A stretch of 64,000 bases of DNA from assembly GCF_013315695.1 (NCBI RefSeq), contig NZ_CP054353.1, one strand, 5' to 3'. Within the stretch, counting starts at the first letter, position 1. Each line of letters begins with the position of its first letter. The notes under the pieces are model-generated. The model was not told the DNA's origin, did no database searches, and saw only the letters and a list, made by a program, of their open reading frames with translations. Shown piece by piece: positions 13,016-44,453 of the stretch. This DNA is from Escherichia coli. Its GTDB lineage: Bacteria; Pseudomonadota; Gammaproteobacteria; Enterobacterales; Enterobacteriaceae. Position numbers and translations under genes: made by a program.

Positions 13016-14109
13016 TCCTGAGCCAGAGAAAGCAGTATTTGCGTAACGCGCCCTGCGGAAAGCGGGGTGCTGTGAGTAAATACTGCTTGTTTATGTAGCC
13101 AGTCGATAAAATGTCTGCTGGTTGCGAAAGAGAGCATTACAGCTTTGCTGTTATTTCCGCCCGTTAATGCACATACCATTTTACGATTTTTGCCCTGAAC
13201 CCAGAGTTGCCACTGATTTTTCCACCAGCCGTGATAAGTTTTTCCCTGAAAACGCCAGGGCGTATTATCGGTATAGTCAGCTATTTCCTCTTCAATAAAC
13301 CAAATTTCACCTTGCTGTTGGCGAAACAGTTCTGCCCAGGCCGTAATAATCGCACCTCTTAAAAAACACTCGTGTGAAATTACATGTGTTTTTACTGTAG
13401 GGAATAAAATATTCAGTACTCTAAAATGCCCGTGCGCTGTGATAACCGGACGCAGAATAACACCTTTAGCATTGCGTTTGAGCGCTGCGCTGCCATACTG
13501 AATTTCATCAAACTGACTGCGGCGTAGAAATTGTGCTTCGCGCATATCAACGCGTTGTACAATATTACTCTCGTGTAACTCTGGTTCTGCATTTCCTCTG
13601 TATCGATAATACAGACTTTCTCCAGCCTGATGCTGCGTGTAATTAGTAGAAAGATGAAGAATATTACCGCGAAGAGCATCAAAACTGATTAAAACATACA
13701 GTTTCTGCCCGCCGCTGGCTCCCTGAAATGGCACCAGAAGAGCAACCGTTTCGATTATTTCAGGAGGCGTTATTTCTTTCTGATATTGTTTAGGTGTCCA
13801 GACTTTTTTGCAGTTACGACATTGAATGCGTTGCGACCCCTGTGGATTGTGGCCATAACAAATCGTCTTTGTGCCATAACATACCGGGCAGAAATGACCT
13901 TTCTCAGTTGCAAAAGTAGATAAGTGAACTGACAACCAGTCACGAAATTGCTGTTCGTCAAACAACGGCGGGTAACTTCCACATGCCCGACAGTGCAGTG
14001 CCGGATAACCCAGTCGATAGTCTGGCCAGCTGTAATCTGTCGAAGTTGGCTGCCCTAAATTACGGCAACCAAACGACTTGCAGGCATTAATCGTAAACAG
14101 AGTCGACAT
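12979..14109 (-). CDS. Hypothetical cysteine-rich (multi zinc-ribbon) protein, accessory; function unknown
   Basis: 376-aa ORF in visibly AT-richer DNA; N-terminal 100 aa carry C-x4-C, C-x2-C, C-x2-C and C-x2-C pairs including CPVC...QRIQCRNCKKVW, which resembles the IS1 InsA / IS1595-type transposase zinc ribbon; no recognisable catalytic motif; 3' end overlaps metL by 37 bp. Confidence 0.55.
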   Translation of the reverse strand: MSTLFTINACKSFGCRNLGQPTSTDYSWPDYRLGYPALHCRACGSYPPLFDEQQFRDWLSVHLSTFATEKGHFCPVCYGTKTICYGHNPQGSQRIQCRNCKKVWTPKQYQKEITPPEIIETVALLVPFQGASGGQKLYVLISFDALRGNILHLSTNYTQHQAGESLYYRYRGNAEPELHESNIVQRVDMREAQFLRRSQFDEIQYGSAALKRNAKGVILRPVITAHGHFRVLNILFPTVKTHVISHECFLRGAIITAWAELFRQQQGEIWFIEEEIADYTDNTPWRFQGKTYHGWWKNQWQLWVQGKNRKMVCALTGGNNSKAVMLSFATSRHFIDWLHKQAVFTHSTPLSAGRVTQILLSLAQDYNNCARRLISD

Positions 14110-14241
14110 ATATCACCAACGATTTCACAAGGTCGTTGATTTTGTCCGGCAACGCTCCCTTGTGGATGTGATTGCTCTCACATAAATAATTCTTTCAGAA
14201 CGTAATGTAGCAATCCTTTATCTCACTGGAAGGGATTGTTT

Positions 14242-15795
14242 ATGAAAATTAAAATGCTTGCTGCGGGTATCGCATTAACACTGCCGTTTTGGGCTTGCGC
14301 CAAAGATGTCACCATCATTTATACCAACGACCTCCATGCACATGTAGAGCCTTATAAAGTGCCGTGGATTGCTGACGGTAAACGAGATATTGGCGGCTGG
14401 GCAAATATCACTACGCTTGTTAAACAAGAAAAAGCTAAAAACAAAGCGACCTGGTTTTTTGATGCGGGTGACTATTTTACCGGGCCGTATATCAGCAGCC
14501 TGACTAAAGGCAAGGCGATTATCGATATTATGAATACCATGCCATTCGATGCGGTCACTATAGGTAATCATGAATTTGATCACGGCTGGGACAATACGTT
14601 ATTACAGTTGAGTCAGGCAAAATTCCCGATTGTGCAGGGTAATGTTTTTTATCAGAACAGCAGTAAATCATTCTGGGATAAGCCCTATACCATCATTGAA
14701 AAAGACGGCGTGAAAATTGGCGTGATTGGTTTGCACGGTGTATTTGCCTTTAATGATACGGTATCTGCGGCAACGCGAGTGGGTATTGAGGCGCGTGATG
14801 AAATTAAATGGCTACAACGTTATATCGATGAACTCAAAGGCAAGGTTGATTTGACCGTTGCGCTGATTCACGAAGGTGTTCCGGCCCGCCAGTCCAGTAT
14901 GGGGGGCACAGATGTGCGCCGCGCACTGGATAAAGATATTCAGACGGCAAGTCAGGTGAAAGGGCTGGATATTTTGATCACCGGGCATGCACATGTGGGT
15001 ACGCCGGAACCGATTAAAGTCGGCAATACGCTCATCCTCTCCACTGACAGCGGTGGGATTGATGTCGGTAAACTGGTACTGGACTACAAAGAGAAGCCGC
15101 ATGATTTTACGGTGAAAAACTTCGAGCTTAAAACCATTTACGCCGACGAGTGGAAGCCCGATCCGCAAACAAAACAGGTGATCGACGGCTGGAATAAAAA
15201 GCTTGATGAAGTGGTGCAACAAACGGTCGCGCAATCGCCGGTTGAATTAAAACGTGCCTATGGTGAATCGGCTTCCCTCGGGAACCTGGCGGCTGATGCT
15301 TTACTGGTAGCGGCGGGTAAAAACACCCAATTGGCGTTAACCAACTCTGGCGGCATTCGCAATGAGATCCCCGCAGGGGCGATTACGATGGGCGGCGTCA
15401 TCAGTACCTTCCCGTTCCCCAACGAACTGGTGACGATGGAACTCACGGGTAAACAATTACGCAGTTTGATGGAACACGGCGCAAGTTTAAGTAATGGCGT
15501 TTTACAGGTATCGAAAGGCCTGGAAATGAAGTACGACAGCAGCAAACCGGTTGGTCAGCGGGTAATCACACTGACTCTGAATGGCAAACCCATTGAAGAT
15601 GCGACAGTTTATTCTATTGCCACCCAGAGTTTCCTTGCTGATGGTGGAGATGGTTTTACCGCCTTTACCGAAGGGAAAGCGCGTAACACAACGGGCGGTT
15701 ATTACGTTTATCACGCCGTGGTTGATTACTTCAAAGCGGGTAACACCATCACGGATGAACAGATCAACGGTATGCGCGTGAAAGATATCAAGTAA
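14242..15795 (+). CDS. Secreted bifunctional metallophosphatase / 5'-nucleotidase (UshA family)
   Basis: ORF 14236..15795; first ATG at 14242 with GGAAGGG RBS 6 nt upstream; signal peptide [20 protein letters not shown]; motifs [27 protein letters not shown] and a C-terminal nucleotide-binding domain ([14 protein letters not shown]). Confidence 0.8.
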
Positions 15796-39873: not shown

Positions 39874-41247
39874 ATGGCACTTTGGGGCGGGCGTTTTACC
39901 CAGGCAGCAGATCAACGGTTCAAACAATTCAACGACTCACTGCGCTTTGATTACCGTCTGGCGGAGCAGGATATTGTTGGCTCTGTGGCCTGGTCCAAAG
40001 CCCTGGTAACGGTCGGCGTGTTAACCGCAGAAGAGCAGGCGCAACTGGAAGAGGCGCTGAACGTGCTGCTGGAAGATGTTCGCGCCAGGCCACAACAAAT
40101 CCTTGAAAGCGACGCCGAAGATATCCATAGCTGGGTGGAAAGCAAACTGATCGACAAAGTGGGTCAGTTAGGCAAAAAGCTGCATACCGGGCGTAGCCGT
40201 AATGATCAGGTAGCGACTGACCTGAAACTGTGGTGCAAAGATACCGTTAGCGAGTTGCTGACGGCTAACCGGCAGTTACAATCCGCTCTGGTCGAGACCG
40301 CGCAGAACAATCAGGACGCGGTAATGCCAGGTTACACCCACCTGCAACGTGCTCAACCGGTGACGTTCGCGCACTGGTGCCTGGCTTACGTGGAGATGCT
40401 GGCGCGTGATGAAAGCCGCTTGCAGGATGCGCTTAAGCGTCTGGATGTCAGTCCGTTAGGCTGTGGCGCGCTGGCGGGAACGGCTTATGAAATCGACCGT
40501 GAACAGTTAGCTGGCTGGCTGGGCTTTGCTTCAGCGACCCGTAACAGTCTCGACAGCGTTTCTGACCGTGACCACGTGCTGGAACTGCTTTCTGCTGCCG
40601 CTATCGGCATGGTGCATCTGTCGCGTTTTGCTGAAGATCTGATTTTCTTTAACACCGGCGAAGCGGGGTTTGTGGAGCTTTCTGACCGTGTGACTTCCGG
40701 TTCATCATTAATGCCGCAGAAGAAAAACCCGGATGCGCTGGAGCTGATTCGCGGTAAATGCGGCCGGGTGCAGGGTGCGTTAACCGGCATGATGATGACG
40801 CTGAAAGGTTTGCCGCTGGCTTACAACAAAGATATGCAGGAAGACAAAGAAGGTCTGTTCGACGCGCTCGATACCTGGCTGGACTGCCTGCATATGGCGG
40901 CGCTGGTGCTGGATGGCATTCAGGTGAAACGTCCGCGTTGCCAGGAAGCGGCTCAGCAGGGTTACGCCAACGCCACTGAACTGGCGGATTACCTGGTGGC
41001 GAAAGGCGTACCGTTCCGCGAGGCGCACCATATTGTGGGTGAAGCGGTGGTGGAAGCCATTCGTCAGGGCAAACCGCTGGAAGATCTGCCGCTCAGTGAG
41101 TTGCAGAAATTCAGCCAGGTGATTGGCGAAGATGTCTATCCGATTCTGTCGCTACAATCGTGCCTCGACAAGCGTGCGGCAAAAGGCGGCGTCTCACCGC
41201 AGCAGGTGGCGCAGGCGATTGCTTTTGCGCAGGCTCGGTTAGAGTAA
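39874..41247 (+). CDS. argH: Argininosuccinate lyase
   Basis: 457-aa [26 protein letters not shown]; fumarate-lyase family. Confidence 0.95.
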
Positions 41248-41259
41248 TTGGTTTATATT

Positions 41260-41280
41260 GCTCCCCTGAAAATGGGGAGC
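41260..41280 (+). terminator. Stem-loop after argH (weak terminator candidate)
   Basis: gctcccc-tgaaaat-ggggagc hairpin directly after the argH stop; no strong T-run. Confidence 0.35.
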
Positions 41281-41732
41281 TTACCACGCCTATAAAGTAG
41301 CGACACTACGTAGGCGGACTGCCTCAGGCAGAAATTTGTCAGCATTCTGGTGACCTTAAATTTAACGCCCAACCAGAACTATTATTTGTCATATTCCTTT
41401 TTATTCTTGCATCTTCTTTACCTTCACTCTCCCCATGAAAATCATATTTTCAATACATCAATCAATACATATTTTAATTAATTGAATATAATTAATTTCT
41501 ATTGCTGTGCTCATTTTTAATGATTAATGGAGTTTGTTATGTGATTATTTAACGTGTTGTTTTAACGATGATGGTTAATTATTCAGGTGGTTTTTGAGGG
41601 TGTTTTTTCTCCTCGGCGGAAATTTTTATTTTTAATGTGATCACGGTTGAATAATCGCTCCTTCTCTCTTGTATGGTAGTAGGCGTAAAATTAAGTTTGA
41701 AGCGTCTATTTACAACACAGGAGATTGCAATA

Positions 41733-42947
41733 ATGAAAATTATTGCTGCAGATGTTTTTGTTACTTGCCCAGGACGTAATTTCGTTACGCTTAAAATAAC
41801 CACTGCAAGCGGACTTTGTGGATTGGGAGATGCCACATTAAATGGTCGCGAATTGTCGGTCGCTTCTTATCTGAAAGATCATCTTTGTCCACAATTAATT
41901 GGCCGCGATGCCAGCCGTATCGAAGATATCTGGCAATTCTTTTATAAAGGTGCTTACTGGCGACGTGGCCCCGTCACGATGTCGGCCATTTCTGCCATTG
42001 ATATGGCGTTGTGGGATATCAAAGCCAAAGCGGCAAATATGCCATTGTATCAACTGCTTGGTGGTGCTTCTCGTGAAGGCGTGATGGTTTATTGCCACAC
42101 CACCGGGCGCACGATTGATGAAGTCCTTGAAGACTATGCAAAGCACCAGCAGATGGGCTTTAAGGCGATTCGTGTGCAGTGCGGTGTACCGGGTATGCAA
42201 ACCACTTATGGCCTGGCGAAGGGCAAAGGACTGGCGTATGAACCGGCAACCAAAGGCCTGTGGCCGGAAGAGCAGTTGTGGTCTTCAGAAAAGTATCTCG
42301 ATTTTACACCGAAGTTATTTGAAGCGGTGCGTAATAAGTTCGGTTTTAACGAACATCTGTTGCATGACATGCACCATCGCCTGACTCCTATCGAAGCGGC
42401 GCGCTTTGGGAAGAGCATTGAGGATTACCGCCTGTTCTGGATGGAAGATCCGACGCCTGCTGAGAACCAGGAATGTTTTCGTCTGATTCGCCAGCATACT
42501 GTGACGCCGATTGCGGTCGGTGAAGTGTTTAACAGTATCTGGGACTGCAAGCAGTTAATCGAAGAGCAGCTGATTGACTATATTCGCACGACGATTACCC
42601 ATGCAGGCGGCATAACCGGGATGCGACGGATTGCCGATTTTGCATCGCTTTATCAGGTACGTACCGGTTCGCATGGCCCTTCAGATTTATCGCCTGTTTG
42701 TCATGCGGCGGCGCTGCATTTTGACCTCTGGGTGCCAAACTTTGGCGTTCAGGAGTACATGGGCTATTCCGAACAAATGCTTGAAGTCTTCCCGCATAGC
42801 TGGCGCTTCGATGAAGGTTATATGCACCCAGGCGATGAACCGGGGCTGGGTATTTCTTTCGATGAGAAACTGGCGGCGAAATATCCGTATGACCCGGCGT
42901 ATCTCCCCGTCGCACGACTGGAAGATGGCACATTGTGGAACTGGTAA
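41733..42947 (+). CDS. Enolase-superfamily sugar-acid dehydratase, RspA/ManD-like (D-mannonate/altronate dehydratase family), accessory
   Basis: ORF 41673..42947; start at ATG 41733 with AGGAG RBS 9 nt upstream; 404 aa [24 protein letters not shown]... closely resembles RspA as I recall it. Confidence 0.8.
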
Positions 42948-43013
42948 TAACAGTTCGCTTAATTATTTTCTGAATAGTCATCAAATCGATTAATTCCGCT
43001 CAAGGAGCTAAAA

Positions 43014-44297
43014 ATGGACGTTGATGTGTCAACCAGTGTTGCGGGTAATAAACCGCAACGGATTCGTCGTATTCAGACAGTAACGCTGGTTTTATTATTT
43101 ATGGCGGGGATCGTTAATTTCCTCGACCGTTCGTCATTGAGCGTGGCAGGCGAAGCGATTCGTGGCGAGTTAGGATTATCGGCGACAGAATTTGGCGTTT
43201 TGCTTTCTGCATTTTCTCTGTCTTATGGTTTTTCACAACTCCCTTCCGGTATTTTGCTAGACCGCTTTGGCCCACGAATAGTTTTAGGCGCAGGCTTAAT
43301 ATTCTGGTCATTAATGCAGGCATTAACAGGAATGGTTAATTCTTTTAGCCACTTTATTTTAATGCGTATCGGTCTGGGTATTGGCGAAGCGCCATTTATG
43401 CCTGCGGGAGTAAAATCGATCACCGACTGGTATGCGCAAAAAGAACGCGGCACGGCGCTGGGGATTTTTAACTCATCTACCGTTATCGGTCAGGCTATTG
43501 CGCCTCCTGCTCTTGTATTGATGCAGCTGGCATGGGGCTGGCGGGCAATGTTCGTCATCATCGGCGTGGCGGGGATTCTGGTTGGGATCTGTTGGTACGC
43601 GTGGTATCGCAACCGGGCGCAGTTTGTCCTGACCGACGAAGAACGGACCTATCTCTCCGCGCCGGTTAAACCGCGTCCACAATTACAATTTAGCGAGTGG
43701 CTGGCGCTGTTTAAGCATCGGACAACCTGGGGGATGATTTTAGGTTTCTCTGGCGTCAATTATACCGGTTGGCTCTACATCGCGTGGTTACCCGGTTATT
43801 TACAAGCCGAGCAAGGCTTCAGTCTGGCGAAAACCGGTTGGGTGGCGGCGATTCCTTTCCTCGCGGCGGCGGTCGGGATGTGGGTTAACGGTATTGTTGT
43901 CGATCGGCTGGCGAAAAAAGGCTACGACCTGGCGAAGACGCGTAAAACGGCTATTGTCTGCGGTTTGATGATGTCGGCATTAGGCACGTTGCTGGTCGTG
44001 CAATCCTCCTCGCCAGCCCAGGCTGTAGCGTTTATCTCAATGGCGCTGTTCTGCGTGCATTTCGCGGGAACATCTGCATGGGGACTGGTGCAGGTGATGG
44101 TGTCAGAAACAAAAGTGGCTTCCATCGCCGGGATTCAAAACTTTGGCAGTTTTGTTTTTGCTTCCTTTGCTCCGATCGTAACCGGTTGGGTAGTGGATAC
44201 CACGCACTCGTTTAATATGGCGCTGGTTATCGCGGCCTGTGTGACGTTCACCGGGGCGCTGTGTTACTTCTTTATTGTCAAAGATCGGATTGAGTAA
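43014..44297 (+). CDS. MFS transporter, probable hexuronate/aldonate (anion:cation symporter-like) permease, accessory
   Basis: 427-aa ORF with AGGAG RBS; about 12 predicted TM segments; MFS signature region GLGIGEAPFMPAGVKSITDW; 66 bp downstream of the dehydratase. Confidence 0.75.
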   Translation: MDVDVSTSVAGNKPQRIRRIQTVTLVLLFMAGIVNFLDRSSLSVAGEAIRGELGLSATEFGVLLSAFSLSYGFSQLPSGILLDRFGPRIVLGAGLIFWSLMQALTGMVNSFSHFILMRIGLGIGEAPFMPAGVKSITDWYAQKERGTALGIFNSSTVIGQAIAPPALVLMQLAWGWRAMFVIIGVAGILVGICWYAWYRNRAQFVLTDEERTYLSAPVKPRPQLQFSEWLALFKHRTTWGMILGFSGVNYTGWLYIAWLPGYLQAEQGFSLAKTGWVAAIPFLAAAVGMWVNGIVVDRLAKKGYDLAKTRKTAIVCGLMMSALGTLLVVQSSSPAQAVAFISMALFCVHFAGTSAWGLVQVMVSETKVASIAGIQNFGSFVFASFAPIVTGWVVDTTHSFNMALVIAACVTFTGALCYFFIVKDRIE

Positions 44298-44336: not shown

Positions 44337-44453
44337 AAAAAAAAGCGGATCCTGGAGATCCGCAAAAGTTCACGTTGGCTTTAGTTATTCGAGTTGAGAA
44401 ACTCTCGAAACGGGCAGTGACTTCAAGGGTTAAAAGAGGTGCCGCTCCGTTTC
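44337..44453 (-). ncRNA. oxyS: OxyS small regulatory RNA
   Basis: Minus strand reads GAAACGGAGCGGCACCUCUUUUAACCCUUGAAGUCACUGCCCGUUUCGAGAGUUUCUCAACUCGAAUAACUAAAGCCAACGUGAACUUUUGCGGAUCUCCAGGAUCCGCUUUUUUUU, matching the OxyS sequence I recall, divergent from oxyR and ending in a terminator hairpin plus U-run. Confidence 0.85.

Follow-up and report, generated by a model that had tools for sequence, protein, structure and literature searches.

A probable rspA-type promoter and RspR operator in the AT-rich spacer upstream of an accessory manD operon of Escherichia coli

The argH-manD spacer studied here is ordinary non-coding DNA. It separates argH from an accessory operon for sugar acids, which consists of manD and a transporter gene. 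We consider it likely that the spacer contains a copy of the rspA-type promoter, at which RspR, acting in trans, would repress the operon and an activator, probably CRP, would be needed. The new point is that an accessory operon with an rspA-type promoter/operator is probably governed by a core regulator, RspR, together with an activator. Sequence comparison indicates that the 485-bp spacer is most likely a composite intergenic region rather than a long transcribed leader. Its left 135 bp are made up of the hairpin that follows argH, the remains of a REP element and junction sequence. Behind them come ~146 bp (23 % GC) that are free to change in sequence between alleles while the composition stays AT-rich, and then ~200 bp of conserved regulatory DNA. 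If this reading is true, an accessory sugar-acid operon brings its own copy of a core-genome operator and falls under existing host regulators, which would illustrate in a simple way how accessory genes can join a regulon that is already in place. It would also mean that a 'single-target' regulator can have a strain-dependent regulon size, with a second RspR target in about one third of E. coli strains.

Locus and gene content of the insert

All positions refer to the window, that is, the whole stretch of 64,000 nucleotides that was analyzed. The 601 bases used as query (41200-41800) were 100 % identical to E. coli strain MS 21-1 (NZ_CP146670.1), and the genome-wide comparisons below were made in the DNA of that strain, which was taken as the same genome. 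The gene order is ppc, argE, argCBH, manD, MFS transporter, OxyS, oxyR and sthA. When the region was compared with K-12 using BLAST, homology ended at the argH stop codon (41247) and restarted at 44337, the OxyS terminator; in K-12, just 54 bp, including a canonical argH terminator, lie between argH and OxyS. The following features define the insert and its right edge.

41733-42947, + strand: manD, D-mannonate dehydratase of the enolase superfamily (RefSeq annotation, start at 41733)
43014-44297, + strand: MFS transporter gene (RefSeq annotation; best match, the D-galactonate transporter family)
44344-44453, - strand: OxyS sRNA, right edge of the insert (Rfam RF00035, 139.5 bits)

The manD product matches the ManD equivalog of NCBIfam with 731 bits, where the cut-off is 550, and the score of the MFS gene was below the D-galactonate transporter family's own cut-off. 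ManD and RspA of MS 21-1 are paralogues with 91.3 % amino acid and 80 % nucleotide identity. An earlier note, made from the sequence of this DNA, had claimed that no regulator gene is encoded in the insert and that control must come from elsewhere. Indeed, manD and the MFS gene are the only two CDS of the insert, so control must act in trans. A candidate source is present, as rspR, rspA and rspB are all intact elsewhere in the MS 21-1 genome, with rspR ~2.3 Mb away on the same chromosome.

Base composition of the spacer

The GC content was 33.7 % for 41285-41732 and 34.4 % for the full argH-manD spacer (41248-41732). The window as a whole has 52.1 %, manD 50.0 % and the MFS gene 51.2 %. The tract 41285-41732 was the GC minimum of the 64 kb whether 448, 300, 200 or 100 bp were averaged, and the 200-bp minimum (24.5 %) starts at about 41380-41384. 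The earlier description of this tract as strongly AT-rich was borne out in this respect, and both AT-rich runs quoted in support of it were found (41464-41504 and 41624-41658). In the case of its extent, the description applies to about 41383-41663 (28.5 % GC, with a core of 23.3 % at 41383-41528) but not to the left 65-100 bp, where the REP remnant (41285-41335) and the junction (41336-41382) have GC contents of 52.9 % and 40.4 %, respectively.

The spacer was also ranked among 47 intergenic regions that are 200 bp or longer, drawn from 264 kb of MS 21-1, including four annotated 50-kb stretches. It was 11th by overall GC and third by 200-bp minimum; when the AT-rich ETT2 island was omitted, it was second of 37, with z = -1.5 (core mean 41.9 %, sd 5.0). 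Windows of 200 bp with a GC content of 24.5 % or lower made up 0.04 % of the positions and fell into four separate regions in the 264 kb, and comparably AT-rich regions occurred about once per 50-70 kb. The claim that the tract is unusual thus held in part: it is far richer in AT than coding sequence and lies in the low tail of the distribution but is neither an outlier nor unique among long spacers, and its AT-richness is otherwise as expected for a long bacterial promoter region.

Conserved blocks in the spacer

A conservation map was drawn from 15 distinct haplotypes, which came from E. coli genomes, from metagenome contigs and from E. whittamii. Invariant runs were observed at 41533-41553, 41556-41566, 41593-41599, 41610-41616, 41621-41627, 41629-41643, 41645-41656, 41664-41701, 41704-41715 and 41717-41734. 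The 38-bp run 41664-41701 was invariant even in E. whittamii and in a second E. coli allele (L106/L093), which is 30-50 % diverged further upstream. Across the promoter and 5' UTR, 2 of 103 sites differ from E. whittamii, compared with 20-25 % of four-fold synonymous sites. Two further conserved elements lie upstream of the 38-bp run.

41533-41566: far-upstream conserved block TTTGTTATGTGATTATTTAAC-GT-GTTGTTTTAAC (invariant runs 41533-41553 and 41556-41566, 15 haplotypes)
41593-41616: conserved inverted repeat TTTGAGG / TCCTCGG, with invariant arms and a variable 10-nt spacer

In the L106/L093 allele the sequence on either side of 41533-41566 has diverged, which marks this block as a true footprint rather than the edge of a recombined segment; consensus scans matched no factor to it. 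Scans of the spacer with the KdgR, UxuR/ExuR, IHF, Lrp and RspR box consensus sequences gave chance-level results, and Fis-like and H-NS-like matches were ~2.3-2.4 sd over shuffles. The invariant 11-mers GATTATTTAAC (41543-41553) and GTTGAATAATC (41646-41656) are inverted repeats of each other at 10 of 11 positions and stand 103 bp apart; each adjoins a TGTGAT.

The rspA-type promoter and the candidate RspR operator

YdfH, a regulator of the GntR family, was renamed RspR by Shimada et al. (2021). In K-12 it binds at a single place, the rspA promoter, and is described as a single-target regulator; it protects 31 bp centred on ATACnnGTAT and represses rspAB, and rspA transcription starts ~30 nt upstream of the ATG (PMC8249747). 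In a comparison of the DNA upstream of the ManD/RspA gene at 80 Enterobacterales loci, a TTGTATGGTA core, inside the invariant CTTGTATGGTAGT, was found at 78 of them. At rspA, CTTGTATGGTAGT is the core of the footprint published for RspR (YdfH; PMC8249747), and the published box lies within the conserved motif aTaCTTGTATGGTAGT as ATAC-TT-GTAT. The corresponding elements of the manD spacer are as follows.

41636-41651, + strand: CRP-like site TGTGAtcacggTTGAA, left half perfect and right half weak, centred at about -60.5 from the predicted start
41668-41680, + strand: RspR-type operator core CTTGTATGGTAGT, a 13-mer (exact match), inside the 38-bp invariant block 41664-41701
41692-41697, + strand: predicted -10 hexamer TAAGTT, 17 bp after TTGTAT, fitting the conserved ta..Tt columns with a 1-bp shift
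41704-41732, + strand: predicted short 5' UTR (~29 nt) with the Shine-Dalgarno sequence AGGAG at 41719-41723 (invariant runs 41704-41715 and 41717-41734)

The operator core is rare. An 11-mer inside it, TTGTATGGTAG, occurs at only two sites in 340 kb of MS 21-1, at rspA and in the manD spacer, and a PWM built from the sites of other species, with the manD-spacer site left out, exceeded 5 bits only at rspA (68.7) and in the manD spacer (25.7). Its placement is conserved as well. From the TTGTATGGTA core to the start codon there are 64 bp at manD (41669, ATG at 41733) and 65 bp at rspA (L043: 5936, ATG at 6001). In 81 of 92 orthologous promoter sites, TGTGA stands 33 or 34 bp upstream of the operator core; at manD the distance is 33 bp, equal to that at rspA of MS 21-1. 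The upstream regions of manD and rspA have little in common beyond TGTGATCAC and CTTGTATGGTAGTAG, despite the 80 % nucleotide identity of the genes, and we read these two elements as footprints conserved between the paralogues.

The manD spacer therefore resembles the rspA promoter/RspR operator of K-12 (PMC8249747) in the invariant core CTTGTATGGTAGT(AG), in the TGTGATCAC element at a 33-bp offset, in the distance from motif to start codon and in having a 91 % identical paralogue downstream. It differs in a 1-bp shift of the -10 hexamer and in an unrelated UTR sequence, and the rspA promoter is without the ~290 bp of AT-rich upstream DNA and the extra conserved blocks seen at manD. The main difference concerns the RspR box ATACnnGTAT, as the equivalent position (41665-41674) reads TCTCttGTAT and keeps the right half only; the pattern ATACNNGTAT had no match in the spacer with up to one mismatch allowed. 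As the left half of the palindrome is absent, binding may be weak or lost. However, a TCTC-type (T/C-rich) left half is also found at promoters before the orthologous MFS gene and at other second sites of rsp/ydf clusters in other genera, and this half-palindrome variant may form a class of real but weaker operators.

The operator variant TCTTGTATGGTAGT also stands, as an additional copy, before other rsp/ydf cluster genes in several genera (L055 11568, Klebsiella spallanzanii; L022 8701; L026 11054; L069 9789). In the Klebsiella spallanzanii sequence, an ORF ~110 bp downstream of the variant resembles a periplasmic binding protein. These copies suggest a larger RspR regulon outside K-12.

The operator core overlaps the predicted -35 hexamer TTGTAT (41669-41674). 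With the offset transferred from the mapped rspA start, we infer a transcription start at ~41704. A sigma-70 consensus promoter scan of the spacer found nothing; both hexamers are weak, which explains this result and fits an activator-dependent promoter. A class II CRP promoter with TATGGT as the -10 hexamer was also considered and was dropped, because the mapped rspA start puts the homologous promoter 1.5 turns downstream.

The identity of the activator is less firm. The right half of the CRP-like site, TTGAA, matches that of the 22-bp CRP site TGTGA-N6-TCACA at two of five positions; by consensus matching alone the site is not above chance, while the position of its TGTGA is conserved across genera. 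The predicted centre at -60.5 compares with a class I centre near -61.5. Neither rspA nor ynfA is in the CRP ChIP-seq table of ETEC H10407, and the TGTGA element could belong to a factor other than CRP. Sugar-acid operons such as uxuAB and kdgT are commonly under catabolite control. The UxuR/ExuR- and KdgR-controlled hexuronate promoters of uxuAB and kdgT share the metabolic step from D-mannonate to 2-keto-3-deoxygluconate with manD, but the manD spacer is without their consensus sequences above chance.

Taken as a copy of the rspA-type promoter, the conserved core of the spacer would comprise a CRP-like TGTGA, an RspR operator over a weak -35 hexamer and a weak -10 hexamer. The accessory manD-MFS operon would in this way be wired into the host's existing rspAB circuit, with RspR as the putative repressor in trans and with a predicted requirement for an activator, probably cAMP-CRP, because both hexamers are poor. 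The binding of RspR and of CRP is deduced here from motif and spacing.

These results bear on two claims of the earlier note. It had placed the promoter and regulatory sites of a dehydratase-transporter unit in the tract directly upstream, and this agrees with the 38-bp block invariant in 15 haplotypes and with the rspA-type operator/promoter. It had also called the tract a 450-bp leader, which it probably is not: by homology to the rspA start the 5' UTR would be ~29 nt long and most of the tract would be untranscribed from that promoter.

The argH 3' end and the distal AT-rich tract

The part of the spacer to the left of the conserved blocks contains the following features.

41260-41281, + strand: argH 3' hairpin GCTCCCC-TGAAAAT-GGGGAGC (from the sequence; no U-tract after it)
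41287-41331: REP remnant of normal GC content, 13 bp of which are deleted when it is aligned with the E. coli haplotypes of four other strains
41383-41528: distal AT-rich tract of variable sequence (23.3 % GC), including the C-rich, G-poor 41392-41469

The hairpin has no U-tract and is therefore not a canonical intrinsic terminator; a terminator consensus scan found no terminator in the spacer, and at the same position K-12 has a canonical hairpin plus U6. The predicted fold of 41248-41345 has an energy of -36.2 kcal/mol (z = -3.65). In island-bearing strains, the canonical K-12 argH terminator was lost and a U-tract-less hairpin and REP were found instead (41248-41345 compared with L002 2549-2610). 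The sequence 41287-41331, which we take to be a REP from its resemblance to the known REP consensus, reads GTAGGCGGA/CTGCCTCAGGCA here and GTAGGCGGATAAGGCGTTTACGCCGCATCAGGCA in the other strains. As with REP/BIME elements at operon 3' ends, it matches the REP of the other haplotypes and folds into stable hairpins after argH; it differs in being truncated by 13 bp, and it explains only the part of the spacer that is not AT-rich. The haplotype with the 13-bp deletion was observed in about 140 genomes.

The distal tract has 50-67 % identity to the second E. coli allele (L106/L093), and this homology is real (z = 10.9). The entire 355-bp spacer upstream of manD in that allele is AT-rich too (30.4 % GC). 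On the + strand of the tract, 41392-41469 holds 21 C and 2 G in 78 nt, ~145 nt past the argH stop codon. A repeat search returned only short AT-rich pairs, as by chance.

Any role of this tract has to be weighed against none. We give a little less than an even chance to the view that 41383-41528 is a weakly constrained spacer that drifted AT-rich and has no specific function, with only the proximal ~200 bp being of importance. The low identity between the two alleles agrees with this view when set against the 2.6-4.2 % divergence of manD at four-fold sites, as do the rate of the larger bin 41350-41629 (conserved blocks included), which evolves at ~0.55-0.6 of the synonymous rate in argH-adjacent haplotypes, and the result that no RNA family match, conserved ORF, repeat family or paralogous copy was found. 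In addition, the orthologous promoters of other genera work with spacers of 110-205 bp and 39-51 % GC. It is harder to reconcile with a GC content of 23 %, which falls under nearly all sampled spacers, and with a composition kept in both alleles, which may point to composition-dependent selection. In the reading suggested by the earlier note, the tract would be a xenogeneic AT-rich promoter region that is coated by H-NS/StpA, silencing the accessory operon and perhaps adding to control by RspR and CRP. We regard H-NS binding as plausible, though less likely than not, and as compatible with the main model. Like H-NS/StpA-silenced promoters, the spacer stands before an accessory operon (1865 of 5426 genomes), is AT-rich within the range of the ETT2-island spacers of MS 21-1 (25-32 % GC) and has frequent TpA steps (twice the window average). 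It contains nine matches to TCGWTWAATT with up to two mismatches, compared with 3.9 ± 2.2 in shuffles (z ~2.3), two of them with just one mismatch, and the spacer of the second allele is AT-rich as well even though its distal sequence is 30-50 % diverged. On the other hand, the AT-rich part is short (~280 bp), is confined to the spacer between genes of 50-56 % GC and shows no A-tract phasing (AA/TT helical phasing as a curvature proxy, p = 0.1-0.3), and comparable core spacers are present in MS 21-1. The genes of the operon are not themselves AT-rich and lie without mobility features, and their divergence, which is like that of the neighbouring core gene argH, argues against recent acquisition. 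The literature on H-NS with mannonate dehydratase and that on ManD/CFT073 and L-gulonate yielded nothing on the manD locus, and H10407, the strain with H-NS/CRP ChIP-seq, is without the island.

The distal tract could instead serve argH as an untranslated 3' region in which Rho stops read-through from argCBH and the hairpin and REP stabilise the argH 3' end, a proposal that we find doubtful. It would account for the loss of the canonical terminator in island-bearing strains, for the stable U-tract-less hairpins at 41248-41331 and for the C-rich, G-poor stretch 41392-41469, which is rut-like and resembles Rho loading sites. However, the proposal rests on composition only, and it cannot describe the original role of the tract, as the tract of the second allele follows an OxyS-like element and not argH. 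It is very improbable that the tract encodes a small protein, a small RNA, or a long structured leader such as a riboswitch. For 41500-41760 the predicted RNA fold reaches z = -2.55 and contains a long-range helix in which the invariant 11-mers (41543-41553 and 41646-41656) pair; in addition, there is a 43-aa ORF at 41350-41481 and an antisense ORF of 85 aa at 41579-41836. Against this, the spacer alone had no Rfam match at E-values up to 10 and a scan of the locus found only the true OxyS; the 43-aa frame is broken by indels in other haplotypes and the small ORFs are not conserved. In the case of the helix, a rough estimate for equally long AT-rich DNA gives about 2.5 inverted repeats of this 10-of-11 quality by chance, both arms are invariant and leave no covariation to test, and the predicted start site lies downstream of it.

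Control by an rspA-type promoter with RspR and an activator remains the preferred reading for the proximal part. A broader version, which is speculative and which we would not expect to hold as a whole, combines it with the remaining features of the spacer: the half-palindrome operator would make manD-MFS a second, strain-variable RspR target, a further factor would act at 41533-41566 and 41593-41616, and the AT-rich tract would bring about H-NS-type silencing, giving a duplicated pathway gene a three-layer switch.

Distribution and history of the insert

The AT-rich tract is single-copy and was found in 1865 of 5426 complete E. coli genomes (~34 %), never on plasmids; when other copies were sought, one locus per genome was obtained. 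The island thus has an accessory distribution, and K-12 and H10407 are without it. In 146 of the 1865 genomes, a larger island lies between argH and manD, with genes for a DeoR regulator, a sugar ABC transporter, an epimerase and an FGGY kinase. In strain GF43 (L108 2350-11406), the larger island also has an araD pseudogene before manD, its epimerase is an L-ribulose-5-P 3-epimerase and manD is split by IS1. At least three states of the argH-oxyS locus were therefore observed in E. coli: empty, manD-MFS and the large island. Homology between the two island arrangements begins at 41383.

A degenerate second OxyS-like element, divergent from manD, lies directly upstream of the manD spacer in 146 complete genomes (L106 1716-1838, minus strand; L108 about 11415-11540; also L093 and L103); the window is without it. 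It scored 41 bits against RF00035 (gathering score 75) and has 82.7 % identity to the true OxyS over 98 nt. Several of its stem pairs are broken, and the true OxyS is still present beside oxyR. No similarity was found between the leader and the oxyS-oxyR spacer.

The suggestion of the earlier note that the tract was acquired horizontally found weak backing: the genes have a core-like GC content, no mobility genes are present among the two CDS of the insert, no direct or inverted repeat of 7 nt or longer is shared by its borders, and its divergence follows that of argH. At synonymous sites, manD and the MFS gene have diverged as argH has, by ~0.09-0.11 within E. coli and by 0.20-0.25 relative to E. 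whittamii. From these comparisons, the manD-MFS insert looks like an old polymorphism of Escherichia rather than DNA that arrived recently. In other genera, the MFS orthologue is found upstream of or next to rspA-rspB; since the spacers there are short (110-205 bp) and of 39-51 % GC, the long AT-rich extension is a peculiarity of the Escherichia locus.

Across 39874-44297 of the window, argH, manD and the MFS gene are ~9-11 % apart at four-fold sites from other E. coli haplotypes (L003-L006), whereas manD is only 2.6-4.2 % apart from the allele of the large-island arrangement. Recombination has therefore made this region a mosaic.

Two minor observations were made outside the insert. Two ORFs of lower GC content at 12979-15795 of the window, one of 376 aa (minus strand, 44.9 % GC) and one of 517 aa (plus strand, 47.8 %), resemble another accessory insert in a core neighbourhood; of the flanking ORFs, we take that of 810 aa to be metL by its position and the other to be metF. 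In E. whittamii (L007 366-951), five tandem matches to the REP-derived Rfam family naRNA4 were found downstream of the convergent genes ppc and argE.
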